Below, piece by piece: positions 3,188-59,750 of a DNA stretch of 64,000 nt. The stretch is taken from assembly GCA_041674405.1 (NCBI GenBank), contig JBAYVT010000005.1:7120-71119 (forward strand), in the 5' to 3' direction. The position numbers and the translations under genes were made by a program. A model generated the notes under the pieces. The model did not search any database. It was given only the letters and a program-made list of their open reading frames with translations, and was not told the DNA's origin. Within the stretch, counting starts at the first letter, position 1. Each line of letters starts with the position of its first letter. Source of the DNA: Patescibacteria group bacterium. Lineage in GTDB: Bacteria > Patescibacteriota > UBA1384 > XYA2-FULL-43-10.

Positions 3188-3253
3188 GACCTGTGCAATA
3201 ATACATTTTTGTGCTAATATCCGCTTGTTGTTACACAACTGGAGGTGTTGGCA

Positions 3254-3439
3254 ATGTCAGCGTTTTCTCTCAGGAAAACCGCCGTGAAGAAACCCGGGGC
3301 TTGTCCGATCTGTCACGATACCGGAATGCATCGGTCTGGCGGTCGAACTCGCAACTGCAGCTGCCCGAAGGGCCGCGAACTCGCCAAGAAGGAGAAGGCC
3401 AACCGCGCGGAAGCGAAGAGAGCAGCCAAGAAGAAGTAG
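3254..3439 (+). CDS. Small basic zinc-ribbon-like protein (CPICH...CSCP) in GC-rich cassette A
   Basis: GGAGGTG SD at 3241-3247, 6 nt before the ATG. Local GC is far above the flanks. A C-terminal Lys/Arg/Ala tail. A terminator hairpin follows directly. Confidence 0.5.
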   Translation: MSAFSLRKTAVKKPGACPICHDTGMHRSGGRTRNCSCPKGRELAKKEKANRAEAKRAAKKK

Positions 3440-3466
3440 TAGTCAGGGCCAACGCCTCGACCCGGT

Positions 3467-3500
3467 AACCCGCCACTTAAGGCGGGTTTGCTGGTTTATT
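3467..3500 (+). terminator. Rho-independent terminator (CCCGCC-ACTTAA-GGCGGG then T-rich)
   Basis: Stem-loop at 3469-3486 followed by TTTGCTGGTTTATTTG. Confidence 0.6.
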
Positions 3501-3528
3501 TGACAGTATTTTTGTGTCAATATATACT
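3500..3528 (+). promoter_or_regulatory. Sigma70-like promoter (TTGACA, 17 bp, TATACT) giving a leaderless transcript of the AbrB-like gene
   Basis: -35 at 3500-3505 and -10 at 3523-3528. The ATG at 3537 lies 9 nt after the -10 box. Confidence 0.5.
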
Positions 3529-3536
3529 ATTTGTAA

Positions 3537-3752
3537 ATGCAAACAGAAAAAAGAAAATTGATAAAATTTTCGAATTACAGCCTTTGCGTTACTTTGCCCA
3601 AATGGGTCATCCGTGAACTCAAATGGAATAAGGGTGATCTTGTGAACATGGAGGTTGATTCTGATGGCGGAACAATTCACATATCAAAGGGCAAAAAACG
3701 GGCTATCAAAACAAACACTGAGGCCAAAAATAAGGCTGGTTTACGCTGGTAA
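3537..3752 (+). CDS. AbrB/SpoVT/MazE-type swapped-hairpin DNA-binding protein (solo)
   Basis: KLIKFSNYSLCVTLPKWVIRELKWNKGDLVNMEVDSDGGTIHI matches the AbrB-N/SpoVT fold pattern. No adjacent toxin ORF. Confidence 0.55.
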   Translation: MQTEKRKLIKFSNYSLCVTLPKWVIRELKWNKGDLVNMEVDSDGGTIHISKGKKRAIKTNTEAKNKAGLRW

Positions 3753-3921
3753 AAACTTGAAATTAATGTAAGGCGCGGCGTTTGTCGCTTTTTTAGTATC
3801 AATTTGTGATTTAATTATTTTAAAATAGAACTTCATGCGCATGTTACAGCTGCGAGGCCCCCACCTCGGGCGAAGAAGCCATTCAGGTTATGAATATCTG
3901 ATAAAGCATGAAACTAGGGTA

Positions 3922-4482
3922 ATGAAAAAGTTGAATCGAAAATTTTTTGAACGGGATGCTGAAATTGTAGCTCAAAACCTTTTGGGTAAATATTTTATGT
4001 ATAAAACAAAAACAGGAATTATCGAAGGAAAAATCGTGGAAACCGAAGCTTATGGTGGGCCAGATGACCTCGCATCCCATGCTAGATTTGTGAGTAGCAG
4101 CCGCAATCAATTGATGTATGAACAAGGCGGGACATTGTATGTTTATCTGGTTTACGGAATATATTATCTTACAAATATCATCGCCGGGAAAAAAGGAAAA
4201 CCCAGCGGAGTTCTAATTCGTTCGGCGGAAATTGATTCTGCTTCGTCCAATAAAGCAGCGACTGGGCCAGGCAAATTTTCACAATACTTCAAAATTAATC
4301 TTTCACACAAGGGATTGGACATTGTAAATTCAGATAAGATTTTTATTGAAGATAGGGGAAACGATATTTCCGATTCTGATATAATTAAGACGAAACGGGT
4401 CGGAGTTGATTATGCGGGCCATTCCAAAGACTGGGACTTAAGATTTTATATTAAAGACAATAAATTTATTAGCAAAAGATAA
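3922..4482 (+). CDS. DNA-3-methyladenine glycosylase (Mpg/AAG family)
   Basis: Motifs FFERDAEIVAQNLLGK, ETEAYGGPDDLASHA and TLYVYLVYG. The ORF is open from 3835; the ATG at 3922 (MKKLNRKFF) is the more likely start. Confidence 0.75.
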   Translation: MKKLNRKFFERDAEIVAQNLLGKYFMYKTKTGIIEGKIVETEAYGGPDDLASHARFVSSSRNQLMYEQGGTLYVYLVYGIYYLTNIIAGKKGKPSGVLIRSAEIDSASSNKAATGPGKFSQYFKINLSHKGLDIVNSDKIFIEDRGNDISDSDIIKTKRVGVDYAGHSKDWDLRFYIKDNKFISKR

Positions 4483-4488
4483 TTTTGT

Positions 4489-5403
4489 ATGGCAAAAGTT
4501 GCATTTATAAAATCAAACGATCGCAGGTATAATATCTCCAGATCTTTGTCACTTATAAAAAGCGAGATAATTTCTGGTCTTAAAAACGCTAAAAAAGTTG
4601 TAGTCAAACCGAATTGTATCGTGGATGATTTTCAGCTTGCAGCTACTCATGTTGACGCACTAGATGCGCTCCTGGACTTCATTGCTCCTTATTGCAAAAA
4701 TCAGATTACCGTAGCCGAAGGGACGGGAATCGGCGATACGATGAATGCCTTTCGCAACTATGAATATTTTTCTGTACAGGAAAAATATGGTTTTGCAGCC
4801 ATTGATTTAAATATTGACGAAACAGAGGAGGTAGAAGTTTTTGATCGCAACGGTCGCAAATTTCAAGTTTTGATGTCGAAAACAATTTTGGATTCAGATT
4901 ACTTGATATCGCTTTGTGTACCAAAGACACACGACTCGGTGGTATATACTGGTGCAATTAAAAACGTGGCTGTTGGATCGCTTCATCGGCCTGTTGATAC
5001 TTTTTCCGGTGGTATAGTTTCCATGTTTAGAACAAAACGAAACAACAAAGCATCAATCCATCAAGGATATAAATACATGAATGAAAACTTAAAAATCCTC
5101 GCATTAAAAAAAGTGCCCAATCTTGCAGTAATCGACGGCTTCGCAGCAATGCAAGGAGACGGGCCGGCACATGGCGGTGAAATGGTGCCATCTCACTGGG
5201 CTATTGCATCATCCGATGTATTATCAGCGGACATTTTGAGTATCACAATGATGGGAATCGATTTGAAGGATGTCGGATATCTAAGCTTGCTTAACGAAGA
5301 AAATCGGCCCAGTGAGCCCTTTGTTATTGGTGATGATTGGAGGTCGAATATCCTTAAGTTTAAACTCCATTCGAAATTTAATGAAATGAAAAAATGGCAA
5401 TGA
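4489..5403 (+). CDS. DUF362 domain protein
   Basis: VVVKPNCIV and the overall DUF362-like pattern. Function unknown. Confidence 0.5.
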   Translation: MAKVAFIKSNDRRYNISRSLSLIKSEIISGLKNAKKVVVKPNCIVDDFQLAATHVDALDALLDFIAPYCKNQITVAEGTGIGDTMNAFRNYEYFSVQEKYGFAAIDLNIDETEEVEVFDRNGRKFQVLMSKTILDSDYLISLCVPKTHDSVVYTGAIKNVAVGSLHRPVDTFSGGIVSMFRTKRNNKASIHQGYKYMNENLKILALKKVPNLAVIDGFAAMQGDGPAHGGEMVPSHWAIASSDVLSADILSITMMGIDLKDVGYLSLLNEENRPSEPFVIGDDWRSNILKFKLHSKFNEMKKWQ

Positions 5404-5430
5404 TTTGTTCAGATTCGAGATTATGCTAAA

Positions 5431-6294
5431 ATGTATATGTCATTAGGAGGGGTCCGCCAAGCGCGGGTTAGAAAAATGGGGATTGCCGACGATATTCGTC
5501 CTAAAAAGAATAAAAAAAAGATAGCAGAGGAATCAGAAGAGGTAAAAGAACCTGAAATCGGAGATGGTGAACTCGTATCAATTTCGCATGGCAAAGGCCA
5601 TGATTTTGTTGCGTCAGATATCGAAGAGCAACTGGAGCGCGAAAAAAATGAACGCAACGAATATGATGAAGATAGTGAATATGACGAAGACAATGAGCAC
5701 GAAAATATGTCGGATTATTTTTATCGCAACAGCCGAATAAAAGAGCCAAAAACAAAAAGAAAAGGTAGTTTTGGTAAATGGCTGATTTTAATATTAGTAT
5801 TGGCCTTAGTCGGAATTATCATTTGGCAAAATTTGGACTCGATAAAATCATATTTCGGCATTGCCAACAGCAAAGAGAATACAAATACCGATAACTCAAA
5901 CCTTTATTCTGATTTTTCCGTAAATAGTAGCAGCCAACCAACTTCTCAACCTACCGTACAAGAAAATACTACACCAAATGCCTCTTCCGACTCGACTGCC
6001 GCCGCAGAAACACCAGATAAATCAATATATACTATTTCAGTTTTGAATGGTAATGGCATCAAGGGCTCTGCGGCAGGCGTCACCAGTGCTCTAGCTAATG
6101 CGGGTTATACCGTTACCAATACCGGAAACGCACTCAAATTTTCGTATATTAATTCAATAGTTTATTACAAAACCGGAAAAGCAGATGTAGCTAACGCTAT
6201 AAAGACAGTTCTTTCAGACCGGACAATCGAGTTATCTGAAGATAATACAATAACGGGTAATTATGATATCGTGATAGTCGTTGGAAAAACATAA
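5431..6294 (+). CDS. LytR_C (LytR cell-envelope-associated C-terminal) domain protein with acidic N-terminal region and one TM helix
   Basis: A TM helix (WLILILVLALVGIIIW). The C-terminal block YTISVLNGNGIKGSAAGVTSALANAGY...IVIVVGK is a LytR_C pattern. Start codon uncertain. Confidence 0.55.
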   Translation: MYMSLGGVRQARVRKMGIADDIRPKKNKKKIAEESEEVKEPEIGDGELVSISHGKGHDFVASDIEEQLEREKNERNEYDEDSEYDEDNEHENMSDYFYRNSRIKEPKTKRKGSFGKWLILILVLALVGIIIWQNLDSIKSYFGIANSKENTNTDNSNLYSDFSVNSSSQPTSQPTVQENTTPNASSDSTAAAETPDKSIYTISVLNGNGIKGSAAGVTSALANAGYTVTNTGNALKFSYINSIVYYKTGKADVANAIKTVLSDRTIELSEDNTITGNYDIVIVVGKT

Positions 6295-6295
6295 A

Positions 6296-6418
6296 ATGGC
6301 ACGTAATAATAAAAACTTGCCTGGTATAATTATTGGAATTATAATTCTTGTGATATCCACATTGATAGCAATTATTTCTTACGTATCGACTAATGTTCAA
6401 GGAAAACCATTAATTTAA
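6296..6418 (+). CDS. Possible 40-aa single-TM micro-protein (MARNNKNLPGIIIGIIILVISTLIAIISYVSTNVQGKPLI)
   Basis: ATG 1 nt after the upstream stop. Strongly hydrophobic core. Below the ORF-track length cutoff. Confidence 0.3.
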   Translation: MARNNKNLPGIIIGIIILVISTLIAIISYVSTNVQGKPLI

Positions 6419-6431
6419 GAAAGGGATAAAA

Positions 6432-6698
6432 ATGGAACCTGTTAACTCACTTGATCAGCTTTTCGGATATTACGACAAATTTCTCGCAAATGTTCCTGTA
6501 CAATATCAGGCATTAATTTCGATTGCCCTAATAGCTTTTCTTATTTGGAATATTTACGCAATTATTAAAAACGGGCACTGGCTTCTCATTGCTTTGCTTG
6601 TTGTTGCCCTTCCCGGAACTTGGCCCGCCCTTCGGATGATTGGCAACTTTCTTTGGGCAATTATCAAGGGACTACTTATGCGAGCCTCCCTAATCTGA
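6432..6698 (+). CDS. Small membrane protein (2 predicted TM helices)
   Basis: Hydrophobic segments LISIALIAFLIWNIYAI and LLIALLVVALPGTW. GGA RBS upstream. Confidence 0.45.
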   Translation: MEPVNSLDQLFGYYDKFLANVPVQYQALISIALIAFLIWNIYAIIKNGHWLLIALLVVALPGTWPALRMIGNFLWAIIKGLLMRASLI

Positions 6699-6743
6699 TA
6701 TATTGATCGTAAGATAAATAATTAATATTAAATTATTATTTTA

Positions 6744-7181
6744 ATGTTGGAAAATATGAATACTTTAGAACTAATTCCTTCAAAAAAATACCTCATTCGG
6801 CTCCACAAAGGCGAAGAAATCCTTGAATCCTTAAAGTCTTTTTGTAAAGAAAACAATATCGAAAGCGGATTCGCCATGATGATTGGAGCAATCTCATCTG
6901 TAAATCTTGCTCTTTATGAACTTAACAAGAAAGAATACTTTAGAAAATCTTTTGACGGGGCCTTTGAAATTGCCTCTATGAGTGGAAATATTACTAAAAT
7001 GAATGGTGAACTCATCACACACATTCATGGGATATATTCTGATAAAAATTTTGAAACAATCGCCGGGCATGTGGATAGAGCAGTTGTTTCTGCAACTTGC
7101 GAAATATTGCTTACAACATTCGAAAATAAAATATCGCGCCAAAAATCTGAAGAAATAGGCTTAAATTTATTGGATTTATAA
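6744..7181 (+). CDS. PPC/DUF296 (PCC) domain protein
   Basis: GEEILESLKSFCKENNI, AISSVNLALYE, ELITHIHGIYSD and GHVDRAVVSATCEILL match the DUF296/PPC pattern. Confidence 0.6.
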   Translation: MLENMNTLELIPSKKYLIRLHKGEEILESLKSFCKENNIESGFAMMIGAISSVNLALYELNKKEYFRKSFDGAFEIASMSGNITKMNGELITHIHGIYSDKNFETIAGHVDRAVVSATCEILLTTFENKISRQKSEEIGLNLLDL

Positions 7182-7202
7182 GTTTTTTCAAAAGGAATAA
7201 AA

Positions 7203-8096
7203 ATGTATGACATTATTATAATAGGTGGCAGTGCAGCTGGGCTCACCGCAGCAATTTACGCAACAAGAAGAGCGTTAAAAACATTGGTTTTGACAGCTGA
7301 AATAGGTGGTCTCATGGCTAAGAATTCGGAGATAGAAAATTGGCCCGGAGAGTTAAAAATCAACGGGGTAGAATTAGCAAACAGGATGAAAACGCAAGTA
7401 GAAAATTTTGGTGCAGATCTAAAACTGGAGCTTGTACAAAAAATATCCAGCGATAAAAGCGGTTTTTCAGTTGTGACAAGCAAAGGAATATATCAAGGAA
7501 AAACAATTTTACTGGCTTTTGGAAAGAGCCCTCGTGTCTTAAAGGTCCCTGGCGAGGAAAAATATCTTGGGCGAGGAGTATCATATTGCGCCACTTGTGA
7601 CGCACCTTTATACCGAGAAAAAAACGTTGCGGTTATTGGTGGTGGAAATTCAGCGCTCGATGCCGCAGTTCTTCTGTCCAAAATCGCGGCGAAAGTCTAT
7701 ATCATTCATCGCAAATCAGAGTTTCGTGGTGATGAGTATCTAATTAAAAAAGTGACAAATAGTGATAAAATCGAAGCCATTATGGACTCCGAGCTAAAAG
7801 AAATTAGAGGCAATGAAATTGTTGGGGGTGTTGTGTTGAAAGACGGCAAAGAGATCAAAGTCGACGGAGTATTTATTGAAATCGGTTATATTGTAAACGA
7901 CTCTTTGATTGAGGGAATTGTAGACATAGATCAACTCGGCCAAGTCATCGTAAATCACAACCAAGAAACATCCGTTCCGGGTATTTACGCTGCTGGCGAT
8001 TTAACAAATATGCCCTTTCAACAATTGGTAATTGCTGCCGGCGAGGGAGCAACGGCCGCACTATCGGCTTATGACTACATTCAAAAGAACTTCTAA
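7203..8096 (+). CDS. trxB: Thioredoxin reductase (FAD/NAD(P)-binding, CATC redox-active disulfide)
   Basis: IIIGGSAAGLTAA FAD motif, the SYCATCDAPLY active site and the VIGGGNSALDAA NADPH motif. Confidence 0.85.
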   Translation: MYDIIIIGGSAAGLTAAIYATRRALKTLVLTAEIGGLMAKNSEIENWPGELKINGVELANRMKTQVENFGADLKLELVQKISSDKSGFSVVTSKGIYQGKTILLAFGKSPRVLKVPGEEKYLGRGVSYCATCDAPLYREKNVAVIGGGNSALDAAVLLSKIAAKVYIIHRKSEFRGDEYLIKKVTNSDKIEAIMDSELKEIRGNEIVGGVVLKDGKEIKVDGVFIEIGYIVNDSLIEGIVDIDQLGQVIVNHNQETSVPGIYAAGDLTNMPFQQLVIAAGEGATAALSAYDYIQKNF

Positions 8097-8946
8097 AACC
8101 AATCAGGATGATAAATTTAAAAGAGGATTAATATTCTATCTTTGCGCTTTTATCTTTATCGTTATTGCAGCTATTTTGGTTTTAACAGTTTCCCCATCCC
8201 GCACAAAACACCAAGAGCCATCTATAACGCCGCCAAATACAATTTCTGGGCTAGACTCCGAATCAAAACCAATAGATAATTCAAGCCTGGAAATTCCGGT
8301 TTTAATGTACCACTACATCCGCCAAGTCACTGATCCAAATGATTCGCTCGGAAAAAATCTCTCGGTCACCCCAGAAACATTCGATAAACAACTTGCATGG
8401 CTAAAAGATCATGGCTATGAGGCAATTACTTTCGACAAAGCCCTTGATATTTTTGCAAACAAAGAAGCAATCTCAAATAAACCCGTAATTATTACATTTG
8501 ATGACGGCTACAAAGACGCATATACTGCCGCGATGCCATCCCTTCTCAAGCACAACCTGACTGGAATTTTTTACGTCATTTCCGCCTTTATAATGCGTGA
8601 TCAGCATGTTTCATTCGATGATATTTCGATGATGATCGAGAATAAAATGACGATCGGTTGCCACACGCTTGATCACGTCGACCTAACAGCTGTCAACCCC
8701 GACCGCCTTCAAAGCGAGCTTGTTGATTGCAAAGAATCTCTTGCCAACGTTTACAGCATTCCAGTTTCTGATTTTTCGTATCCTTCGGGAAAATATAATG
8801 ATGAAGTAGAGAATGCGGTAAAAGCCGCCGGATTCAAGACTGCAACCACGACACATTCTGGCGTCTGGAAGCAATCAGATGATCCTTATCAAATTCCTCG
8901 CATTCGCATGTCCGAATCCACCAACCTCTCAAATATTTTGAAATAA
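8071..8946 (+). CDS. Polysaccharide deacetylase (NodB homology domain), N-terminal TM anchor
   Basis: VIITFDDGYKD, a His in IGCHTLDHVDL and a TM helix near the N-terminus. The ORF is open from 8032 and overlaps the trxB end; the ATG at 8071 is preferred. Confidence 0.7.
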   Translation: MTTFKRTSKTNQDDKFKRGLIFYLCAFIFIVIAAILVLTVSPSRTKHQEPSITPPNTISGLDSESKPIDNSSLEIPVLMYHYIRQVTDPNDSLGKNLSVTPETFDKQLAWLKDHGYEAITFDKALDIFANKEAISNKPVIITFDDGYKDAYTAAMPSLLKHNLTGIFYVISAFIMRDQHVSFDDISMMIENKMTIGCHTLDHVDLTAVNPDRLQSELVDCKESLANVYSIPVSDFSYPSGKYNDEVENAVKAAGFKTATTTHSGVWKQSDDPYQIPRIRMSESTNLSNILK

Positions 8947-8986
8947 TGACTTTTTCTAAGGACTACAGACTAATATATAAATATTT

Positions 8987-9020
8987 GTTCGCTTTTTGTT
9001 TGGTCTAATTATGCTATAAT
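8987..9020 (+). promoter_or_regulatory. SOS-box-like GTTCGC-N5-GTTTGG site overlapping a promoter (TATAAT 9015-9020) for a leaderless rarA transcript
   Basis: 8987-9003 reads GTTCGCTTTTTGTTTGG. TATAAT ends 7 nt before the ATG at 9028. Confidence 0.4.
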
Positions 9021-9027
9021 GTTTGCT

Positions 9028-10275
9028 ATGGAAAACAAAACAACGCTATTCCGGGGCGACAGATCGCCGTTGGCTGATAAGCTGCGCCCAATTGATTTTA
9101 GTGAATATGTCGGGCAGGAACACATCTTAGCTAAAGGTAAACTTTTAAGGCGAGCGATAGATGCTGATCGCCTTCCATCACTAATTCTTTGGGGACCTCC
9201 GGGAAGCGGAAAAACAACTTTAGCAAAGATTATCGCACGCAAAACTAATTCCAATTTTTTTACATTGTCCGCCGTTTCCAGCGGAGTTGCCGATGCAAAA
9301 TTAGTGATTAAAAAGGCCGAAGAGGACCTAACGGGTTTCGGCAAAAAAACCATTCTTTTTGTTGATGAAATCCATCGCTTCAACAAAGCCCAGCAGGATA
9401 TATTTCTGCCCTATATTGAAAACGGGACCATTATTTTTATTGGTGCAACCACTGAAAATCCTTCTTTTGAGGTTAACTCGCCACTTTTATCAAGAACTCG
9501 CGTCTTTCACCTTCGTGAACTCACATCAGACAACATAAAAACACTGCTCAAAAATGCAACAAATAAAATCAATAAAAAAGAATTAAATTTAGAAAATATC
9601 AAATCAAAAATTTCTATTACCAACGAAGCTCTCAAACATATAGCGGAATTATGCGAGGGAGATGCTAGAGATGCGTACAATGCCCTTGAGTTGGCAATTT
9701 TAACAACTCCCGCAAAAAGAGGTGAGATTATCATCGATGAAAAAATTGCCGACGATGCGATTCAAGAAAAATTCATCCGTTATGACAAGGGGTCAGATGG
9801 CCACTATGACGCTATTTCTGCTCTTCATAAGTCGCTTCGTGCTTCCGATATTGACTCTTCATTGCATTACACTGCTCGAATGCTGGAAGCGGGCGAGGAT
9901 CCTTTGTATATAGTCCGGCGCCTGGTCCGATTTGCTTCCGAAGATATCGGGGTAGCTGATCCGATAGCATTGATCTTGGCCACATCATGCGAGCGAGCCG
10001 TATCATTCGTAGGAATGCCTGAAGCTTCACTTGCAATCGCAGAAGCGGTCATTTATCTAGCAAACGCCCCCAAATCTCGTGCTGTTGATAGCGCTTATGC
10101 ATCTGCGCTTGACGATGTCAAGAACAAGCGCCTTGACCCGATTCCACTTGACATTCGTAACGCTCCGACCAAGATGATGAAGGATTTTGGCTTTGGGAAA
10201 GGTTATGAAATGTATTCAAAAAAATCTCATCTTCCCAAAAATCTGAAGGACAAAAAATATTGGCACGAAGACTAA
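9028..10275 (+). CDS. rarA: Replication-associated recombination protein A (AAA+ ATPase RarA/MgsA)
   Basis: Walker A GPPGSGKTTLA, Walker B FVDEIHRF, sensor ATTENPSFEV and a MgsA-type C-terminal domain. The ORF is open from 9019. Confidence 0.85.
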   Translation: MENKTTLFRGDRSPLADKLRPIDFSEYVGQEHILAKGKLLRRAIDADRLPSLILWGPPGSGKTTLAKIIARKTNSNFFTLSAVSSGVADAKLVIKKAEEDLTGFGKKTILFVDEIHRFNKAQQDIFLPYIENGTIIFIGATTENPSFEVNSPLLSRTRVFHLRELTSDNIKTLLKNATNKINKKELNLENIKSKISITNEALKHIAELCEGDARDAYNALELAILTTPAKRGEIIIDEKIADDAIQEKFIRYDKGSDGHYDAISALHKSLRASDIDSSLHYTARMLEAGEDPLYIVRRLVRFASEDIGVADPIALILATSCERAVSFVGMPEASLAIAEAVIYLANAPKSRAVDSAYASALDDVKNKRLDPIPLDIRNAPTKMMKDFGFGKGYEMYSKKSHLPKNLKDKKYWHED

Positions 10276-10290
10276 TTTATCGTAGAATAT

Positions 10291-10370
10291 AACTAATAAC
10301 TTAAAACTAAAAGCTAATAACCAAAGGTATTCTATTTCGTTTTTAGTTGTTACATATTAGTTATTAGCAT
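10291..10370. repeat. Cluster of AT-rich CTAATAAC / AACTAAAA repeats (two direct and one inverted copy) in the rarA-DUF3048 intergenic region
   Basis: AACTAATAACTTAAAACTAAAAGCTAATAACC followed by TTTTAGTTGTTACATATTAGTTATTAGC. Related copies lie at 14721, 20146 and 38885 (reverse complement). Confidence 0.5.
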
Positions 10371-10375
10371 ATTTT

Positions 10376-11560
10376 GTGAGGGGTTTTGTTATGGATGATA
10401 TCTATCTTGATTCGAGAAATGTTGGCGATGTTGAACCGCCAAAAAAGAAAAAGGGGATACTGACTCGAATTCGAGTTTTTTTCAAAAATCCTAAAAAAAG
10501 GTTAATTTTTATCATAGTTACCGGAATTGTTCTCATCGCTGCCGCAGTTACTGGCTATTATTTTTACATGAAAAATACCAGCAAGGGAACGGATGGAACA
10601 AACCCAATAAATAAAGATTTCCAGGTTGAAAACCCAACATACCAAGCTGTTCTTGATGGAATCATGGTTGCAAACCAAGAGGCCGCAAGCTTGCATCCTC
10701 TGGGCATAATCATTGAAAATCATACGGATGCGCGACCGCAAGCTGGATTGACTTCGGCGAGCATTGTTTATGAGGCCATTGCCGAAGGAGGCATTACCAG
10801 ATTTCTTGCCCTGTTTGGTGAAAATGAAGTTGATAAAGCCGGGCCGGTAAGATCTGCCAGAACATATTTCGTTGATTGGGCACATGGATACAATGCCTTT
10901 CTCGCCCATGTCGGCGGCAACATGGATGCACTCGACAAAATTAAGGCTGAGCATATTCTTGATCTTGACCAGTTTGCTTATTCAAAACCTTACTGGCGCG
11001 AAAAAGGATTAAGAGTTTCTTCGGAACACACAATGTTTACATCAACGGAAGGGCTAAGGGCACAAGCAAACTCGAATAAATACACGACAGATAATAATTT
11101 TAAGGTGTTTAACTTTAAAGATGATCCCAAACCTGATTCTGCGGAATTCACTGCTTTGCCAGCATCACAAACAATTTCGATAAATTATGGCAATGCAAAT
11201 TATAATGCCGCCTTCTCGTATGACAAAGCAACTAATTCATATTTGCGCTCTCAGGCAGGAAAGCCTCACACAGATCGGGTTACCGGCAAGCAAATAAACC
11301 CAAAAAATGTAATTATTATGACCGTAAACAGAAAATCAACGGTTACCCGGATCAACGAACAAGGATACATCATGGATGTCATAGGGGAAGGAAAAGCGCA
11401 AATTTTTCTCGATGGCAAAGAAATCGATGGAAAATGGAAAAAAACCTCTGCCTCTGAGCGCGAAATTTTTTATGATTCAGAAGGAAAAGAAGTAACTTTT
11501 AACCGCGGTCAATTTTGGATCAGTATCATTTCCCCGGAACTAAGCGTTAGTGTACAATAA
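10376..11560 (+). CDS. DUF3048 domain lipoprotein/membrane-anchored protein (YerB-like)
   Basis: N-terminal TM. IIIENHTDARPQAGLTSASIVYEAIAEGGITRFLALF and GPVRSARTYFVDWAHGYNAFLAHVGG match the DUF3048 pattern. Confidence 0.65.
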   Translation: MRGFVMDDIYLDSRNVGDVEPPKKKKGILTRIRVFFKNPKKRLIFIIVTGIVLIAAAVTGYYFYMKNTSKGTDGTNPINKDFQVENPTYQAVLDGIMVANQEAASLHPLGIIIENHTDARPQAGLTSASIVYEAIAEGGITRFLALFGENEVDKAGPVRSARTYFVDWAHGYNAFLAHVGGNMDALDKIKAEHILDLDQFAYSKPYWREKGLRVSSEHTMFTSTEGLRAQANSNKYTTDNNFKVFNFKDDPKPDSAEFTALPASQTISINYGNANYNAAFSYDKATNSYLRSQAGKPHTDRVTGKQINPKNVIIMTVNRKSTVTRINEQGYIMDVIGEGKAQIFLDGKEIDGKWKKTSASEREIFYDSEGKEVTFNRGQFWISIISPELSVSVQ

Positions 11561-11662
11561 TAAATAGCGAAAGAATGTGATTTGAGAAATGCGATATGAG
11601 GTTAACTAACCAGTAAGCTCATCTCTCAAAACTCATCTCAAAACAATCTTAAGGAGGGTTTT

Positions 11663-12976: not shown

Positions 12977-12987
12977 ATAACTACAAA

Positions 12988-13024
12988 GAAAAAACCCCGA
13001 GTAATCGGGGTTTTTTCTTTTTTT
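12988..13024. terminator. Bidirectional rho-independent terminator between eno (+) and slt (-)
   Basis: AAAAAACCCCGAGTAATCGGGGTTTTTTCTTTTTTT: a perfect 6-bp GC stem with A-run and T-run flanks. Confidence 0.75.
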
Positions 13025-13030
13025 GTTTAT

Positions 13031-13729: not shown

Positions 13730-13896
13730 TGGAAGTTCGGCTTGGCGAGGGTCGTGGAAATAAGCCTTGGTCCAGATACCATTTTAATTAAAAAATCTCA
13801 CGAATTCGCGAGACGATATATATCTTAGCATATACTACTAATCTTGTCAAGGGGTAAAATCGGCCAAAATGAAGCTAAAATCAGGAGAAAATTCCT

Positions 13897-13932: not shown

Positions 13933-13972
13933 CCCGGTTTTCCCTTCATTTTTCGGATAAGAATGCTGCCAG

Positions 13973-50349: not shown

Positions 50350-50378
50350 TTGACTGTATTGAAAAAACATTGTATATT
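50350..50378 (+). promoter_or_regulatory. Sigma70-like promoter (TTGACT, 17 bp, TATATT) for GC-rich cassette D
   Basis: Read directly in the sequence. Confidence 0.45.
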
Positions 50379-50421
50379 CTTCCTACCCCTTGCGATACTC
50401 CCAAAGAGAGGAGGTGGCAAC

Positions 50422-50673
50422 ATGTTGGATCAGATGCCGGCAGAAACAAGCGCCGCTGCCAAGCAACTCGATGAGGCAATATTGGCAACACTCTCTGCTG
50501 AAGCTGGTCTCCCCTATCCAGTGCTGGCCATACTGGATTCTGTTCGACATCGTACCCAGTCAAGGATAGAAGAACATGCCTTGCTCAGACGACTAGGCCA
50601 CTTAGTGCAGATGGGCACAATCAAGCAAGACCGGGACCGCCGCTCCGGCTCACCAAGATGGCGAATCCGATAG
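50422..50673 (+). CDS. Small (83 aa) putative winged-helix regulator-like protein in GC-rich cassette D
   Basis: GGAGGTG SD 5 nt before the ATG. LDEAILATLSAEAGLPYPVLAILDSV...EEHALLRRLGHLVQMGTI matches a wHTH pattern. GC-rich. Followed by a GGGGGAGGTG plus GTG 9-codon mini-ORF and a terminator. Confidence 0.4.
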   Translation: MLDQMPAETSAAAKQLDEAILATLSAEAGLPYPVLAILDSVRHRTQSRIEEHALLRRLGHLVQMGTIKQDRDRRSGSPRWRIR

Positions 50674-50713
50674 GGGGAGGTGATCGTGTTGCCTCACACG
50701 ATCAATAGCCGAT

Positions 50714-50750
50714 GACGGCCCGCATCCCCGCGGGCCGTCAAAGCTTTTTA
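50714..50750 (+). terminator. Rho-independent terminator (GACGGCCCGC-ATCCCC-GCGGGCCGTC then AAAGCTTTTT)
   Basis: A perfect 10-bp GC stem. It also lies immediately 3' of pth on the opposite strand. Confidence 0.6.
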
Positions 50751-53543: not shown

Positions 53544-55565
53544 TTAATTCACACTTTTTCTGGAGGCCTTAGTGAGTAATTTTTTTTGCTTGAGATAAGT
53601 CAAGTTTACTCCCGCAAACAAAGATCCAAGAAGGCTCAAAACCCCACCGGCTGCAGCGCCGGTCTTGGGAAGAGGGGTGCTTGCTGGCACAACTTTGGTC
53701 AAAATCACGGTTTGGGCAGTCGAAGAAATAGTATTTCCGCCCATAGACAAATATCCCGTATTTATCAGTTGTTCCCCAGCGGCAATATTTGCAGAAGTGA
53801 TCACCCTGAATCTTACATAGCCTGATTGTCCAGGAGCTAAGGTGTTGATGATAAATCCCTTGGTGACATCTTCAGAAATTACATGTTCAGTGCCATCCAA
53901 GTTAATTATCGCAGGAACCGAAGTATCCAGGGCAACATTGGCTGGAAGGACATCGGAAATCTTCACCTGGTCAGCTGGCCCATCTCCAGTGTTTGCAAAA
54001 TCAATTTTGTATTCCAGCATGTCTCCAGGAAAGGCTGTATTTGATTTGGAAAATTCCAATTCATTGCTGGTGATATTTCTAACAACTTTATTGATCGACA
54101 AGACAGGCTCTCTGTGTGGTCTTAGAATTATAATCGTGATTGTATTTCCATACTCGTTAAATAATTTATCATCGAAATGAAAACCATTTTGCGGGTTATC
54201 AGGCAATGGGTCCATCACCTTAACCGTAAATTTCCTAACCACATTTTGCCCCGGATCAATTCGAACTTCCGGCCAAATTACTTCTTTGGAATTATTACCT
54301 TCCTCTGGATTATCTTTGACAATACCCCCATTACTTATACTGACAATGTTTGATTCCTCTAACACATCGCCGATACCATCCGAAACCACAAAGTTAGTAG
54401 CAATGGTTCCGGTGTTTTTGGTGTTCAAGGTATAAATAATAACATCGCCAGGCCTGGCAGGAGTAGATGTCGCATCAACTTTCAAAGTATCATTATAAGC
54501 AGACTTTGAACGATGAATATTAACAACTCCGGCTTTCAAGTCAACAATGGCTTCATCGTTAACGTTAATATTACCTGAAATTGCATAGGCAACATTCGTT
54601 ACAGATTTTGCAACCAATATGTAAGAAGGCGCTTTTGCACGAAATTTAATCACCGCGCCATTTTCCGCGCCAACCTTAAGGCTGCCAATACTTACTCCAC
54701 TAGCAAAAAATCCGGCTGCGTCAAGATTGGTTGTGCTGTCCTCTTTGGTCATCGTAAGGGAATTATCCACATAGGTTAAATCCGAAGGCAGGCCATCAGA
54801 AGCTGTAACTTCCTCAAGCGTTGATTCTCCAGGATTGGTAATATTTATTTTGTATTCCACTGACTCGTTTTGATCTACAGATGTGCGCTCGACAAAACTA
54901 GTCTCATTCTTCGAAATGTTCCTTACCGCTTTCTCAATATGCAGATTACCCGGATTCACTTTTGCAGTTGTTTTAAACTGGAACATTACAAAACCGGCAA
55001 ATTCCCAACAACCATTGATATCTCCGATATTCAAGCCAGACGAAGATAGAAGTTCTGATCCGTCTTGCCCAAAAGGAAGCGGAGTTGGATTGTTTATATC
55101 AGGATTGCTTGCCTGATTTGGAAACCACTTAACAGAACCAGGAACCAGTTTAAGCGTTGCATTTTGATCAAGATTAACAGTCAACGTATCAGAAACTGCA
55201 GCTACGCTATCAGCTGAAATTGTGGCGGACAAAACAGCTGTTTTGTTGGTGGTCTGTGCAGGCATGGATACCTTAATGGTTGTATTTTCAGCGGTAGTAT
55301 TGACCTGGCCATTGTGATAATAAATTAAACCATCTATCACATCACCAGCCTGCCCGTCTACAGGATCACGCCAATCATCATCCTGTGTATCACGAGTTGA
55401 ATTAAAACCCCTAAAAAGCTCCTGATCACCCGGCAGGAAATTAAACCTCGGGCCATCGGCATTGATTCCGATTGCAGGTGAAATAACTTGAGAAATCAAA
55501 AGCGCTGCGGCGGCTACGCCTAAAACATACTTTAATTTCTTTTTAATTTGTGAAAACCATTTCAT
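53544..55565 (-). CDS. Cell-wall-anchored surface protein with DUF11-type repeat domains and C-terminal LPXTG sorting signal
   Basis: N-terminal signal peptide. C-terminal LPKTG, then a hydrophobic stretch and a KQKK tail. An N-terminal PRFNFLPGDQE...GCWEFAGFV domain is shared with the downstream paralog. Confidence 0.7.
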   Translation of the reverse strand: MKWFSQIKKKLKYVLGVAAAALLISQVISPAIGINADGPRFNFLPGDQELFRGFNSTRDTQDDDWRDPVDGQAGDVIDGLIYYHNGQVNTTAENTTIKVSMPAQTTNKTAVLSATISADSVAAVSDTLTVNLDQNATLKLVPGSVKWFPNQASNPDINNPTPLPFGQDGSELLSSSGLNIGDINGCWEFAGFVMFQFKTTAKVNPGNLHIEKAVRNISKNETSFVERTSVDQNESVEYKINITNPGESTLEEVTASDGLPSDLTYVDNSLTMTKEDSTTNLDAAGFFASGVSIGSLKVGAENGAVIKFRAKAPSYILVAKSVTNVAYAISGNINVNDEAIVDLKAGVVNIHRSKSAYNDTLKVDATSTPARPGDVIIYTLNTKNTGTIATNFVVSDGIGDVLEESNIVSISNGGIVKDNPEEGNNSKEVIWPEVRIDPGQNVVRKFTVKVMDPLPDNPQNGFHFDDKLFNEYGNTITIIILRPHREPVLSINKVVRNITSNELEFSKSNTAFPGDMLEYKIDFANTGDGPADQVKISDVLPANVALDTSVPAIINLDGTEHVISEDVTKGFIINTLAPGQSGYVRFRVITSANIAAGEQLINTGYLSMGGNTISSTAQTVILTKVVPASTPLPKTGAAAGGVLSLLGSLFAGVNLTYLKQKKLLTKASRKSVN

Positions 55566-55619
55566 TTTTTATCCTTTTTTAGCCCTCCGCGAACACATTA
55601 TTTTATTTCTAATAAATAC

Positions 55620-57173
55620 TTAAAAAGTTGGTGCAGGAATCGGCATAAGCCTTAGAATCGAACGCGCAATGTCGGAAATTTCCGCTACATTATCCCCCTT
55701 TACAAAAGCAGTATTGGTAAGGGTGTAATCTCCGATCGGCGGGCAACCAACAATAATCCCTGATAACTTGATGATCTTACTCTGGCCCGGATTCATATTA
55801 CCCAAGCTAATTCCGCCGGCGAAAGTGATTCCATCTGGAACTGAAATACCATTAACCGTCGTGGAACCGGGGACATAATTTACATAAAGCGGAAAGATGT
55901 CTCTAGCTTTAACGTTAGTTACAGCCGCATTTCCGGTCGCAGTAACAACGATTTTATAAGTGATCTTTTCTCCCAATTTCACATTATTTTGTTCAACCCA
56001 GGTTGATCCGCTTAATACGGTTTTCTGAATTGTTAATCCAGATGTTGTCGAAACAATCACTCTTGCTGTGCTCTGGCCCTTAAACACTCCGGCCATAAAA
56101 AGCTTCGCTAAGTTGTCGAGGGTTAGCGTCCCTGCGGGAACTGTCGAATCAACTTTCACTTTGTATATAACCCTGATTGACCCAGCGTCGAGAGGCGCGA
56201 TATTCGGCAGATTAACCCCGGTAGAAAAAATCGTATCTGGCAGCTTTACTCCGGCTGGATGTGAAGCATCGAAATAAAAGGTTGTGCCTGTTTCATACTT
56301 CATATGAAGAGGTAATACATCTTTAACTGAAACATTGTTCGCAGTTACATTTCCACTATTTTCAACTTCCAACTTATATTCAACTACTTCTCCTGGATTC
56401 GCGGTAATCTCTTTGTGCCAGACATTTTCATTCAAGTGCTTAACATTCTTATCAATTGAAAGAGCTGTGTTGCCTTTGATTTTTCCGACAAATGTTACAA
56501 ACCCCGCAAACTCCCAGCATCCATTTATATTTCCTATATTTACGCCATTTGCGCTGGTAATTCCATCAGGCAATGATTGTCCGGGTTGGCCAACATGAGT
56601 GGCTTGTTCGGGAAACAATTTAGTTGAACCGGGCACATATTCGATTATTCCACTTGACGGAAGATTAATTGTCTGTCCCGATATGCCTTTGACTGCGCCA
56701 TTGATTATAGTGTCATAGATTGGGGCAGTTTCATCTGACCACAGAGCGCTTGTCTCTTTTAGCGCATTTGACTCGCCTGTCGGCAGTGAAACGCGAATAC
56801 GTACATTGTGGGCTGTCGAATTTAACATTCCATTGTGGTAATAGACCAAAAATGCAACTTCATCACCGATATTGGCATCGATCGGGTCAGCCCAATCATT
56901 GCCCGAAGAAACAACAGATGCACGAAGCATCTCCTGGTCGCCAGGTAAGAAATTAAATCTTGGTGTTTGGCTTGTGTTATTTGATTCGGCAACTTTGGCA
57001 TTTGAAGAAACCAAAGACAGCGAAATCAAACTTACAACAGCCAAAATAACGCCAATTGTTCTTTTGGTTTTTGAAATTCTTGTTTTTGATTTGTCCTTAA
57101 CTCCGTGAAACAATTTCTCTCTCATTTTTTGAAAGAATGACATGTTTCTCCTTACTAGGCTTAAGAATTTCAA
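55620..57173 (-). CDS. Secreted DUF11-repeat surface protein paralog (no LPXTG)
   Basis: Signal/TM segment, then the same PRFNFLPGDQEM...NGCWEFAGFVTF N-terminal module and DUF11-like repeats (VSVKDVLP, VTNVKARDIFP). Confidence 0.6.
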   Translation of the reverse strand: MKFLSLVRRNMSFFQKMREKLFHGVKDKSKTRISKTKRTIGVILAVVSLISLSLVSSNAKVAESNNTSQTPRFNFLPGDQEMLRASVVSSGNDWADPIDANIGDEVAFLVYYHNGMLNSTAHNVRIRVSLPTGESNALKETSALWSDETAPIYDTIINGAVKGISGQTINLPSSGIIEYVPGSTKLFPEQATHVGQPGQSLPDGITSANGVNIGNINGCWEFAGFVTFVGKIKGNTALSIDKNVKHLNENVWHKEITANPGEVVEYKLEVENSGNVTANNVSVKDVLPLHMKYETGTTFYFDASHPAGVKLPDTIFSTGVNLPNIAPLDAGSIRVIYKVKVDSTVPAGTLTLDNLAKLFMAGVFKGQSTARVIVSTTSGLTIQKTVLSGSTWVEQNNVKLGEKITYKIVVTATGNAAVTNVKARDIFPLYVNYVPGSTTVNGISVPDGITFAGGISLGNMNPGQSKIIKLSGIIVGCPPIGDYTLTNTAFVKGDNVAEISDIARSILRLMPIPAPTF

Positions 57174-57328
57174 TTTATTACTCGCACAAAACCATACTAA
57201 ATTCTTGAGCTAATGTCAATGTGTTTTTTCACTTTTTTCACCTTACCAAACATTCAAAATTTAAATGCTTGGTCGGTGGCCCTGGCGCATAGCGCCAGGG
57301 CACCGGTTTAGTTGTACCACACCGCCCG

Positions 57329-58003
57329 CTAGGGCGGTGTGGGCGTGGGCACGGGGATCGGATCCCCGCAGGTCCCCGGCACCTTCTCCTCCTTGTTCGC
57401 CATCCCGGCGAATAGGGTGAGAAGCGTCTCGGTACAGCCTTCGATCACCCGAGCCATGCCCACCGGGCAATCCGGGAGAGGCTGGCTGGGGCTGATCCCC
57501 GCAGGAGCGACCCACTCCCGAGCCGGCGCGTACACGACGTACGGTACCGGGTAGGGCTTGGGGATCTCTACGACCACCGGGTAGGGTACCTTGACCTCAA
57601 CCCGCTCAGGACACGCCAGTTTGCACGCTGGCGGTACCGGAGTGCATGGGATGAAGAAGCGGCCCCTAGCTAGGTTACCGCACCGCACCATACGGGTAAT
57701 CGTGTACCAGCGCCCCTGTACCCCGTCCTTGCAGCCCATCTCTGCAGGTACTGCGTAGACAGTTTCTGTGGGGATCAGGTACCCGGGAACGAAGCGACCT
57801 TCGGACTCAAACCAGACCTCGGCGTCGACATACTGATTGAGCCGGTAGGCCTCCTGGCCGTTGATCGCCGGGCAGTGCCGCCCGATCGGGTACGTGTTCG
57901 TGATCTTCTCCGAGAGGTTGATGCCCGAGGCAAACGCTGCCCCGACCATGACCATCAAGAGAAGGGTGAGGATCAGCGTCAGCTTACCCCTCATGGATCT
58001 CAC
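57329..58003 (-). CDS. GC-rich secreted Cys/Pro-rich protein (224 aa) in island F
   Basis: Signal peptide MRSMRGKLTLILTLLLMVMVGAAFASG. A PVPYVVYAP Pro-rich segment. Very high GC3. Overlaps the upstream gene by 20 nt. Confidence 0.5.
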   Translation of the reverse strand: MRSMRGKLTLILTLLLMVMVGAAFASGINLSEKITNTYPIGRHCPAINGQEAYRLNQYVDAEVWFESEGRFVPGYLIPTETVYAVPAEMGCKDGVQGRWYTITRMVRCGNLARGRFFIPCTPVPPACKLACPERVEVKVPYPVVVEIPKPYPVPYVVYAPAREWVAPAGISPSQPLPDCPVGMARVIEGCTETLLTLFAGMANKEEKVPGTCGDPIPVPTPTPP

Positions 58004-59276
58004 CTCCTGTGAGAATCAGCACTTTGACTTTCCCGTCGAGCGGGTACGTCCAGGTGCGAGTGTCCGGAGATGTGGACAGCGCGAAATGCGTATAGCCACG
58101 CGCTGCCTCACACGTGAACCAGGACTCTCCCTTGTCTCTCGCCGCGACCGTAAACGGTGCGTTGGGAGCGATCCAGCGGCCATCTTGCTGAACCCACAGG
58201 AAGAGTGTCGCCGATGTCTCGCCGGACTGCTCGTCCAGCGCCACGACGAAGGTGGAGTCGGTATGCGCCTCGCGGAGGCGCTCGGCCTGAGACTTTACCG
58301 GCGGTGCCGAGGTAGTGACAGGCGTGGTCGTAGTGGAAGGCTGAACGGAAGCAGGGGGCGGATCCACAGGAGAAGCTTGCTGCTGCTCCTGCATCTTCCG
58401 TAGCACCGCTTCCGCCGCTTCCGCCCGCTCACGCTCTGCCTGAGCCTGGGCCTTAGCGGCTGCGGCCTCGGCTTGCGCCGCGGCAACTGCCGGATCAGGC
58501 CCGTTCTGCCGAGGCATGAACGGAGGTGCGAACCCCTGTGCAGCGCGCGCTGTAGCAGTCGAGATCTCCTGGTAGTCAGCTGGCTTGCAGGCCAGCATTA
58601 TACTAGAGGAGAACATACTGTAGACACGCGACCGGTAGACCGGCCACAGGGCCTTGGGAAGGTCCTTTTCGCACTGCACGCCGCACTGCCCGTTGAGGAA
58701 AGAGACGATGTCGGCGTTTACGTTCTGTACGTTGAACGCTATGGCCGACTGGTCGGTCCTCATGACATGGTCAGCGTGCCTGATGAAGAAGAACCTGTAG
58801 TCCCTTCGGGACTGATCGTGGCGAACCTCTGACACGAGGAAGTAGCGGCCAGGACCGAGCCGATTGAGATCAACCCAGAGCCGGTTATCCTCCGCAGAAA
58901 CACACAGCCCGTCCAGTCCCTCAACTTCGACCCGGGTTCCCTTCAGGTGGCAGTCCTCAATCCCGAATACCCTCAGGTCCACCGACATGCAGCAGGTCTC
59001 TTCGGTGATCTTGTATGGCCTAGGATACCCCTCCGAACAGTCCTCGGAGACCGGAGCCGTGAAGGTCTGGCCCAGAGCCCAGCCGTTCACCGTGCCACCT
59101 TCCTTGTTGCTGAAAGTGACAATTGCGGTGGGCGAACTGATGACCGTGGTTCCCTTGACCGTGATCAAAGGGATACCAAACCCACCGAAGATCGTGGTCT
59201 CGTCGGCCGAAGCCGGCGCGAGACAGACCGCCAGAATGGCAGCCAGAACCAGCAGTACGACGAATCTAGTGCGCAT
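57984..59276 (-). CDS. GC-rich secreted protein (430 aa) with Ala/Gln-rich linker in island F
   Basis: AAGGAGG RBS 8 nt upstream. Signal peptide MRTRFVVLLVLAAILAVCLAPASA. AAAQAEAAAAKAQAQAERERAEAAEA linker. No recognisable domain. Confidence 0.5.
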   Translation of the reverse strand: MRTRFVVLLVLAAILAVCLAPASADETTIFGGFGIPLITVKGTTVISSPTAIVTFSNKEGGTVNGWALGQTFTAPVSEDCSEGYPRPYKITEETCCMSVDLRVFGIEDCHLKGTRVEVEGLDGLCVSAEDNRLWVDLNRLGPGRYFLVSEVRHDQSRRDYRFFFIRHADHVMRTDQSAIAFNVQNVNADIVSFLNGQCGVQCEKDLPKALWPVYRSRVYSMFSSSIMLACKPADYQEISTATARAAQGFAPPFMPRQNGPDPAVAAAQAEAAAAKAQAQAERERAEAAEAVLRKMQEQQQASPVDPPPASVQPSTTTTPVTTSAPPVKSQAERLREAHTDSTFVVALDEQSGETSATLFLWVQQDGRWIAPNAPFTVAARDKGESWFTCEAARGYTHFALSTSPDTRTWTYPLDGKVKVLILTGGEIHEG

Positions 59277-59750
59277 GGTTATGCGCCTCCTTGTGAGTCC
59301 CCTTAGCGGGGTTAGTGTCCCCGCAGGGGGATTTTGTATTCATCTATATCAAAGTGCCACCTCGCTCGCTGCGCAGGTGGCACAGTGAACGAGGTCAATC
59401 TCCGCCAAAACCGTAGTCTTGGCAAGAGGCGAATGATTTAAAAGTCATCACGCCTTCTGCCAAAAAAGTTCTTCAATTATTTTTGACCTTTCCAACCTCG
59501 GCTCGACCATCGGACGAGACGGGTGATTTTCGAATTATCTTCACAGATCCAGCCAGGAATAAGGCGAGAAACGATCAAGGTATTAGCCAGACCAGGTTCG
59601 CATTTTTTAAGGAACCATCAATGTCAGCTATAGAGCTTGCCGCCCATAAGGCCCCTTATTCCCAGCCAGACCCGTAAAAACAATCTCTCAACTTCGGTCG
59701 AGATAAATCTCCGCTTCAGTCGATGTAAACAATTTCTCAATTCCCTTGGA

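Follow-up and report, generated by a model that had tools for sequence, protein, structure and literature searches.

In most bacteria, accessory DNA is AT-richer than the core genome. The nearest parallel that may be drawn from the literature for a GC-rich surface-protein locus selectively maintained in an AT-rich genome is the vls locus of Borrelia, the cassettes of which average 49.1% GC against ~28.6% for the chromosome, a contrast that is kept across species and has been attributed to selection (PMC11499132). The vls coding strand has a GC skew of ~0.52 and G-runs, and the locus carries arrays of silent cassettes that are ~90% identical (PMC11499132). Here we analyze six GC-rich islands, A to F, within 64,000 nt of a Patescibacteria group bacterium (assembly GCA_041674405.1, contig JBAYVT010000005.1, positions 7,120 to 71,119; hereafter, the window). 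On balance, we think it probable that the islands belong natively to a Berkelbacteria-like clade of the candidate phyla radiation (CPR), as lineage-restricted accessory transcription units, and that their GC content is tied to selection for base-paired transcripts.

The comparison with vls rests on island F, which, together with its counterparts in related genomes, is a surface-protein locus far GC-richer than its AT-rich genome and conserved as such across species. Unlike vls, however, the islands show no strong coding-strand GC skew, which is near 0 in five of seven genes (A, C, D, E, and F range from −0.05 to +0.06, and B has +0.25), and there are no cassette repeats within the 64-kb window; the distinctive trait of the islands is an excess of predicted RNA folding. 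With horizontally acquired genomic islands they share atypical GC content, GC content at third codon positions (GC3), and codon usage, as well as sharp borders and accessory or orphan genes. They differ from such islands in that they lack mobility genes, tRNA targets, and flanking repeats, and in that the largest of them, F, is syntenic and compositionally distinct in deeply diverged relatives, whereas imports should drift toward the composition of their host. In contrast to the usual accessory DNA, moreover, they are GC-richer than the core. The leaders of S-layer genes confer a long mRNA half-life, and the islands resemble the mRNAs of S-layer and other abundant envelope proteins in combining a strong promoter, a long hairpin-rich leader, a strong Shine–Dalgarno (SD) sequence, and a secreted envelope protein. 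The excess structure of the islands nevertheless runs through the coding regions, which to our knowledge has not been described for S-layer genes, and is coupled to a 20-point GC shift. The leader of D and the untranslated regions (UTRs) of C and F also recall the GC-rich intergenic structured RNAs that GC-versus-length screens detect in AT-rich genomes, but most of the sequence in the islands codes for protein and the protein families are conserved, and an Rfam search of the window gave no match to the large RNAs GOLLD, ROOL, OLE, HEARO, or raiA. Unlike integron cassettes, the islands are dispersed, have their own promoters, and share no common repeat element. A literature search returned no description of such GC-rich islands in CPR bacteria.

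GC-Rich Transcription Units in a Berkelbacteria-Like Genome

The host is a Berkelbacteria-like CPR genome. The named close homologs of its RF2 belong to Candidatus Berkelbacteria, with the nearest non-self relative 78% identical, and the gene content of the window is typical of CPR bacteria, including LexA, enolase, FtsA/FtsZ, NrdR, UvrD, TGT, L1/L10/L12, Pth, RF2, Dus, and two surface proteins with CLIPPER, an isopeptide-bond domain earlier named DUF11 (PMC12617251). The mean GC content of the 64-kb window is 0.420 (standard deviation 0.075 across 150-nt windows). As delimited in a first-pass annotation of the window, the islands have GC contents of 0.579 (A), 0.524 (B), 0.529 (C), 0.584 (D), 0.562 (E), and 0.611 (F). 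The six GC-rich segments are thus real (52–61% against a window mean of 42.0%), although the flanking background, which had been put at 35–40%, is instead ~42%. The island cores reach 0.562 in C (21332–22060), 0.642 in D (43511–44496), and 0.61 in F. Because seven other stretches of 150–276 nt inside native genes also exceed 0.55 GC in 150-nt windows, A, B, and E are only modestly exceptional on GC alone.

GC3 separates the islands from native genes more clearly than overall GC does. It is 0.63–0.79 in the open reading frames (ORFs) of A, B, C, D, and F vs. 0.33–0.47 in 16 native genes, with a weak codon signal, a GC3 of just 0.49, in the ORF of E. Synonymous choice is reversed between islands and native genes (AAG, 79% vs. 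30%; AAC, 89% vs. 29%; TTC, 81% vs. 26%; CAG, 87% vs. 42%), and the island proteins use more Ala, Pro, Arg, Trp, and Cys. The third codon position is the most GC-elevated, with G3 and C3 both raised, and the ORFs of F, C, and D show the coding pattern GC3 > GC1 > GC2. In tetranucleotide z-scores, the window islands correlate with the islands of relatives at r 0.50, with native DNA at r 0.24, and with seven GC-rich genomes at r 0.17–0.31, a weak indication given that the sequences are short. The initial description of the islands as compositionally and translationally foreign is borne out by GC3, the inverted codon choice, and differences in SD sequences. The accompanying statement that native genes mostly have a weak SD or none is roughly right: an SD-like core is absent at 30 of 55 native starts, but a core of at least 5 nt (AGGAG, GGAGG, or AGGAGG) is present at seven of the 55, enolase among them, and there is no clean dichotomy.

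As read from the sequence, the islands are self-sufficient transcription units, each occupying a slot of variable content flanked by conserved genes. Six of six have a predicted promoter-like site or plausible −10 element, an SD, an ORF, and a GC-stem terminator; an organization as complete mini-cassettes, correctly noted for A, B, C, and D, is therefore not limited to four islands. The flanks of all six are intact and conserved, in agreement with the earlier placement of the islands between intact housekeeping genes, and the synteny of window 1–23 kb is kept in JGI relatives. The nearest relatives for comparing the slots are distant, with an RF2 identity of 78% or less. Across 16 clade loci, GC3 exceeds 0.55 in 30 of 122 lineage-specific ORFs vs. 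6 of 230 shared ORFs. Thus, GC-richness marks the variable gene fraction of the clade, and the extent of this GC-rich variable fraction differs from genome to genome. Neither tRNAs nor Rfam (Rfam 15) families at gathering score were found in the 64-kb window, and a repeat search of it revealed no border repeats, no repeat common to the islands, and no long repeats. The ORF lists of the islands contain no integrase/transposase-type mobility genes, and the island proteins have no matches in Pfam, PHROGs, NCBIfam, or PADLOC; the large protein collections were searched with proteins of D and F. That structural RNAs explain all of the islands was rejected, given the lack of tRNA and Rfam matches, the real ORFs in F, C, and D, and the conserved F family.

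Island F Is Retained in Place and GC-Rich in Diverged Relatives

Comparison with related genomes shows that island F, by its sequence a two-gene operon for secreted envelope proteins, has been kept in its slot and GC-rich during divergence. It is organized as follows.

57279–59463, minus strand: island F, between GPI and CLIPPER genes
59463–59435: putative promoter
59440–59277: structured leader, with SD AGGAGG
59276–57984: gene 1, 430-aa secreted protein (F430) with immunoglobulin-like beta-sandwiches and a coiled coil
58003–57329: gene 2, 224-aa secreted Cys/Pro-rich protein
57339–57320 and 57301–57279: two terminator hairpins

The operon is located upstream of two CLIPPER/DUF11 surface-protein genes. 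The F430 family is rare, with 15 matches when 1.84 billion representative proteins were scanned exhaustively with HMMER; a word-indexed homolog search with F430 returned nothing, low-complexity words having probably swamped it. In the full-length family alignment (A1), the proteins consist of a signal peptide, an N-domain of ~240 aa, a coiled coil, a Pro/Ala linker, and a C-terminal domain. Synteny was checked for five family members from other samples (L090, L091, L092, L173, and L176) and is present in all five: the loci in L092, L173, and L176 are downstream of Dus-GPI, whereas those in L091 and L090 are upstream of CLIPPER genes, that of L091 being additionally upstream of RF2. In each of the five loci a second secreted Cys/Pro-rich gene follows the F430 homolog, and the 224-aa protein of the window is homologous to the second-gene product of L092. 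The F islands of these relatives have a GC content of 0.57–0.65 and a GC3 of 0.66–0.78, compared with 0.37–0.45 and 0.27–0.47 for the flanking genes. F430 proteins are 22–33% identical to the window copy, vs. 62–75% for RF2 among the same genomes. Since synonymous sites are saturated at this F430 divergence, the GC contrast is an equilibrium state and not the remnant of an import. The first-pass annotation had named just such a finding, relatives with GC-rich genes and an equal contrast at this locus, as pointing to native sequence, and recent import is excluded, by the sequence comparisons, for both F and the D leader (see below).

The same slot in L007, L086, and L088 is occupied by two signal-peptide genes of the same architecture, with GC contents of ~0.59, 0.53–0.56, and 0.45–0.47, respectively. 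Homology of the window F and D proteins to these same-slot proteins was sought by BLASTP and with the A1 profile, and none was found. A consensus fold of the F leader over six genomes was not obtained as the alignment was too poor, and only one SD-proximal hairpin was supported. This short GC hairpin lies directly 5′ of the F-operon SD (window 59299–59311; also L090, L092, L173, and L176). Several genomes preserve it through compensatory changes, although the leader is otherwise unalignable; examples are CCCCGCUAAGGGG, CCCCGUCAACGGGG, and GGCCUCAAAGGCC.

An AT-rich element between GPI and island F (window 59500–59640, minus strand) is 85% identical over 89 nt to L090 (5–93) and has counterparts in L091 (1–40) and in L092 (8517–8786), where gene calling gives a small membrane ORF of 89 aa (...FLAFFLAGLV...). 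The window frame matching this ORF holds a stop, and the element may represent either a small gene in decay or non-coding DNA that is conserved. On the other side of the island, the CLIPPER/DUF11 pair (53544–57173) has a conserved PRFNF(L/M)xGD.E sequence just past the signal peptide, and the order of the pair relative to RF2 is conserved across the clade, also in L007, L086, L088, L090, and L091.

Predicted Folding Exceeds What Composition and Codon Usage Explain

Island C shows, along with F and the D leader, an excess of predicted structure.

21093–22068, plus strand: island C, between thioredoxin and UvrD genes
21093–21121: promoter TTGACA-17-TATCTT
21320–21844: ORF, 174-aa membrane protein with two hydrophobic segments and a basic tail
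UTRs: ~190 nt (5′) and ~185 nt (3′)
22028–22068: terminator

All folding was predicted, with z-scores calculated against dinucleotide-preserving shuffles, in most cases 14–20 of them. According to these predictions, C, F, the D leader, and the slot transcripts of relatives are more paired than composition, dinucleotides, and codon usage predict. The z-score is −6.4 for the C transcript, −5.0 for the F430 coding region, and −7.6 for the L091 F430 homolog, vs. −0.66 for the native CLIPPER gene and −0.04 for enolase. Within island C, the coding region has a z of −6.2 (−5.8 against synonymous-codon shuffles) and the UTRs have z of −5.4 and −4.6, while the coding regions of island F range from −3 to −5 and its leader reaches −8.5. 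Taken together, 22 island or slot genes from nine loci have z-scores of −1.5 to −12.9 (median ~−6), vs. +1.2 to −4.4 for 10 native genes and +2.8 to −3.2 for 22 genes of natively GC-rich genomes (GC 0.56–0.71), with ~−1 typical of both control sets. The controls from GC-rich genomes indicate that the excess folding is no by-product of GC or codon periodicity. When synonymous codons were shuffled within each gene, which keeps the protein and its codon usage, z-scores of 13 island genes were −2.2 to −7.3 (median ~−4.7) and those of six native genes were +1.3 to −2.4; synonymous codon placement thus favors pairing. On these two grounds, the 22 genes of GC-rich genomes and the synonymous shuffles, GC or the codon periodicity of GC3-rich genes was rejected as the cause. 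Simple perfect hairpins were likewise rejected as the source of the low folding energies, perfect local hairpins being only mildly enriched (7.0 per kb vs. 5.0 and 4.6). The L088 slot genes, which have near-normal GC and yet z-scores of −5.7 and −6.5, suggest that folding is the conserved trait and GC-richness its means.

Among relatives, L097 (GC3 0.79) and L100 have small membrane ORFs of elevated GC in the slot of island C; in L102 and L104 the slot is empty.

The Leader of Island D Contains a Conserved Tandem RNA Motif

Island D lies on the minus strand between genes for 487-aa and 828-aa proteins and falls into two halves.

44679–44978, minus strand: upstream half, non-coding
44978–44950: promoter TTGACA-17-TACAAT, 11/12 consensus
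44891–44789 and 44771–44679: tandem copies of the leader motif, ~95 nt each, predicted three-way junctions
43507–44678, minus strand: downstream half
44678–44437: leader hairpins
44436–43594: ORF, 280 aa, with signal peptide, coiled coil, Pro/Ala-rich linker, and C-terminal transmembrane helix
43537–43507: terminator

Sequence conservation and covariation show the upstream half to be a conserved tandem structured RNA. The leader spans ~505 nt, with a predicted fold z of −12.9. Each motif consists of a long closing stem, a variable hairpin that often has a UUCG loop, and a hairpin with the loop UUCCCCCUCCGCC, which exposes the unpaired C-rich stretch UCCCCCUCC. This loop is nearly invariant over the six motif copies, its closing stem has compensatory changes, and it is anti-SD-like, that is, complementary to GGAGG-type SDs. 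The motif is also present in L086 and L007, with two copies each after TGT in the same slot. The genes downstream of these copies are GC-rich and encode signal-peptide or Pro/Ala-rich proteins, and in L007 a separate consensus promoter precedes every copy. In the alignment of the six copies from three genomes, 15 of 31 pairs show compensatory changes. Across 738 kb of related loci, a covariance model detects just the same six copies, and it detects none in the viral contig collection, and comparison of 43400–45050 with Rfam gave no match at E ≤ 10 beyond chance level. The tandem motif is a candidate new RNA family.

The C-rich regions of the Firmicutes RNAs RsaE and RoxS pair with G-rich ribosome-binding sites. 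The D-leader motif resembles these RNAs in presenting a C-rich hairpin loop, but it differs in being a tandem three-way junction in the 5′ leader of a gene, not a proven separate small RNA, and in having no Rfam match. The window has no terminator between the motif and the D ORF, and no target site for the loop longer than the short GGAGG complementarity.

The D ORF has a GC content of 0.66 and a GC3 of 0.76. Its 280-aa product matched only itself in a search of 5.8 billion proteins. The 280-aa protein and the F 430-aa and 224-aa proteins agree with the initial report of secreted Pro/Ala-rich products.

A 31-nt stretch at 44949–44979 is 84% identical to 13821–13851, each containing on the minus strand a near-consensus extended promoter, TTGACA-17-TA(A/C)(G/A)AT. 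The former drives the island D leader and the latter the SLT gene, and the likeness suggests that native and island units use the same promoter type. As an inter-island repeat the similarity was rejected, since it reflects the common promoter consensus. The most extreme folding score found belongs to a 209-aa lipoprotein-like gene of L007 (17148–17777), located in a GC-rich island just after TGT (z −12.9 with dinucleotide and −4.7 with synonymous shuffling).

Origin and Maintenance of the Islands

In the interpretation that we favor, selection for extensively paired RNA would hold the GC content of C, F, and the D leader against an AT-biased background, and these folded units would be GC-rich because such folding needs G-C pairs. 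Paired messages would be long-lived or translationally gated, and stable or gated envelope-protein messages may suit cells that have few ribosomes. The C-rich loops of the D leader are candidates to pair, in the fashion of RsaE/RoxS, with the GGAGG-type SDs of island genes. We put forward only tentatively, as something rather doubtful, an extended form of this scheme in which a set of hyper-structured GC-rich mRNAs, for envelope proteins and small accessory products, is held ~20 points above the genome through deep evolutionary time by selection for pairing, a tandem anti-SD RNA gates strong ribosome-binding sites, and the whole constitutes a stored or masked cell-surface regulon; if true, this would be a mode of cell-surface control in an ultra-small symbiont.

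Several observations weigh against the interpretation of the islands as native units shaped by RNA pairing. The coding regions of A (z +1.9), B (−0.7), and E (+1.1) have no excess folding, and neither does the D ORF (−1.5 against dinucleotide and −2.2 against synonymous shuffles), so folding cannot account for all six islands. These four, all small orphan genes, may belong to a clade-specific GC-rich accessory pool or be genuine imports. Antisense strands are strongly negative too, the sense strand being more negative in just 8 of 12 genes, and selection at the RNA level is thus not cleanly separated from selection at the DNA level. In addition, the F-slot proteins of L007, L086, and L088 have no detectable homology to the F430 family and RF2 identity fails to separate F430-bearing genomes from the others, which together make cassette replacement within the F slot possible. 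Finally, the interpretation does not explain why solely these genes should need such mRNAs.

The first-pass annotation had favored acquisition from a high-GC donor, for example an actinobacterium. Such a recent transfer, in which cassettes were put into intergenic gaps and have not yet drifted to host composition, would account for codon and amino-acid usage like that of a ~60–65% GC genome, for sharp borders that match transcription-unit ends, for the lack of counterparts of A and E in relatives, and for orphan genes (D, and A, B, C, and E as far as tested in Pfam, PHROGs, NCBIfam, and PADLOC). It is refuted for F, however, by the GC-rich homologs at the same locus, and the D leader is kept in two relatives; both are conserved in place, with their contrast, across deeply diverged genomes. 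The five F430 members looked up are all in AT-rich CPR contexts, and no donor-type homolog of the island proteins was found in the family libraries, with D matching itself only. The window contains no integrase, tRNA, border repeat, or inter-island repeat, and the tetranucleotide likeness, weak for such short sequences, is to the islands of relatives more than to the GC-rich genomes. We therefore regard recent transfer as an unlikely explanation of the islands. The possibility of a chimera, in which assembly or binning spliced pieces of a high-GC organism into a CPR contig, had also been raised; composition is all that speaks for it, with no tool result in its favor, and we give it next to no weight. 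Logan contigs of SRR6484325 (28.7 and 14.2 kb) match window 1663–13250 and 33594–62010 at 100% identity and span the junctions of A, D, E, and F; a 144-kb JGI contig also encodes the C, D, and F proteins; the NCBI metagenome-assembled genome (MAG) carries annotations for B to F; and the window is reproduced in the ENA MEGAHIT contig ERZ27247358 k141_1464549 (395,669 bp). Independent assemblies thus give identical junctions or proteins, the six small inserts each lie exactly between a terminator and a promoter, and homologous F islands occupy the same slot in five other samples. A viral origin was rejected because the viral contig collection contains neither the RNA motif nor relatives of the two proteins compared with it, F430 and the D 280-aa protein, and there are no PHROG matches, and an origin as defense systems was rejected for want of PADLOC matches.

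Two further processes may have contributed. The slots could be replacement sites, like O-antigen or capsule loci, fed by a clade-wide GC-rich accessory pool that moves by transformation or recombination. Consistent with such an exchange, a given slot may contain, from genome to genome, GC-rich genes that are alike in architecture without being homologous (the F slot of L007 and L086; the B and C slots of L100, L097, and L159; and the slot after TGT of L007 and L086), the occurrence of the F430 family is patchy when set against RF2 similarity, and GC-rich genes are concentrated among lineage-specific ORFs. A pool confined to AT-rich genomes should nonetheless drift AT-ward, so a maintaining force would still be needed; flanking proteins are ~65% identical between genomes and thus too divergent for homologous exchange; and no carrier element was observed. 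As the principal explanation we judge exchange to be somewhat less plausible even than recent transfer. An increase in GC through biased gene conversion or local mutational bias, at recombination hot spots under diversifying selection and with no RNA function, would fit the elevation of GC3 above the other codon positions, the joint rise of G3 and C3, and the fast evolution of the island proteins (22–33% identity vs. 62–75% for RF2). It fails to predict synonymous codons arranged for maximal pairing, the folding of the L088 slot genes at near-normal GC, and borders at transcript ends, and we consider it very improbable. Exchange and biased conversion are possible contributors, but neither explains the signal at synonymous sites.

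These findings warn against inferring horizontal transfer from composition alone, as the island that looks most foreign has been conserved at its locus by vertical descent. Neighboring genes at stable GC3 values of ~0.7 and ~0.35 within one small genome require a gene-specific force, and the folding excess at synonymous sites, seen across homologs of 25–30% identity, points to selection on RNA structure as that force. The question of what sets bacterial GC content becomes testable at the scale of a single operon. The data also point to an unrecognized layer of expression control in CPR bacteria, for which the biology of the cell surface has a central place in symbiosis.

Islands A, B, and E and Additional Features of the Window

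Islands A, B, and E, which have no excess folding in their coding regions, are short and, as with the others, each fits between intact conserved genes.

3235–3495, plus strand: island A (GC 0.58, GC3 0.69), between LexA and a MazE-like gene
3241–3245: SD GGAGG of island A
3254–3439: ORF of island A, 61 aa
3467–3488: terminator hairpin of island A
13905–14272, minus strand: island B (GC3 0.63), between SLT and a gene for a 134-aa protein
14272–14244: promoter-like site of island B
14206–13973: ORF of island B, 77 aa with Cys/His pairs, a hypothetical protein in the NCBI MAG annotation
13935–13907: terminator of island B
50350–50740, plus strand: island E, between Pth and L1, on the strand opposite to both
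50350–50378: promoter-like site of island E, with SD AGGAGG
50422–50673: ORF of island E, 83 aa, also called in the Logan contig
50713–50740: terminator of island E, 11-bp stem

The 61-aa product of island A is zinc-ribbon-like (CxxC...CxC) with a Lys-rich tail, and the slot of this island is empty in relatives. Directly after it, at 3537–3752, a gene for a 71-aa MazE/AbrB-type antitoxin-like protein, with weak matches in Pfam and NCBIfam, stands alone, no obvious toxin partner adjoining it. The SLT/134-aa slot of island B contains unrelated GC-elevated small ORFs in L100 (94 aa, GC3 0.69) and L159. Island E has no counterpart in relatives. The Pth-L1 slot of L088 (13102–18854), and also of L089, holds seven tandem paralogous genes of ~240–360 aa without a Pfam match and of normal composition (GC 0.39–0.42). 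Among the related loci, L173, L174, and L175 differ by 0–2 bases. Protein variants in JGI records were considered as polymorphism and rejected as start-codon artifacts.

The window as a whole changes orientation near its middle, with genes on the plus strand up to ~30.9 kb and on the minus strand from ~31.4 kb. The GC skew changes sign at ~30900–31400, and the cumulative skew peaks at ~21 kb, plateaus, and falls steadily from ~31 kb. This joint switch of strand and skew at ~30900–31400 fits a replication terminus.

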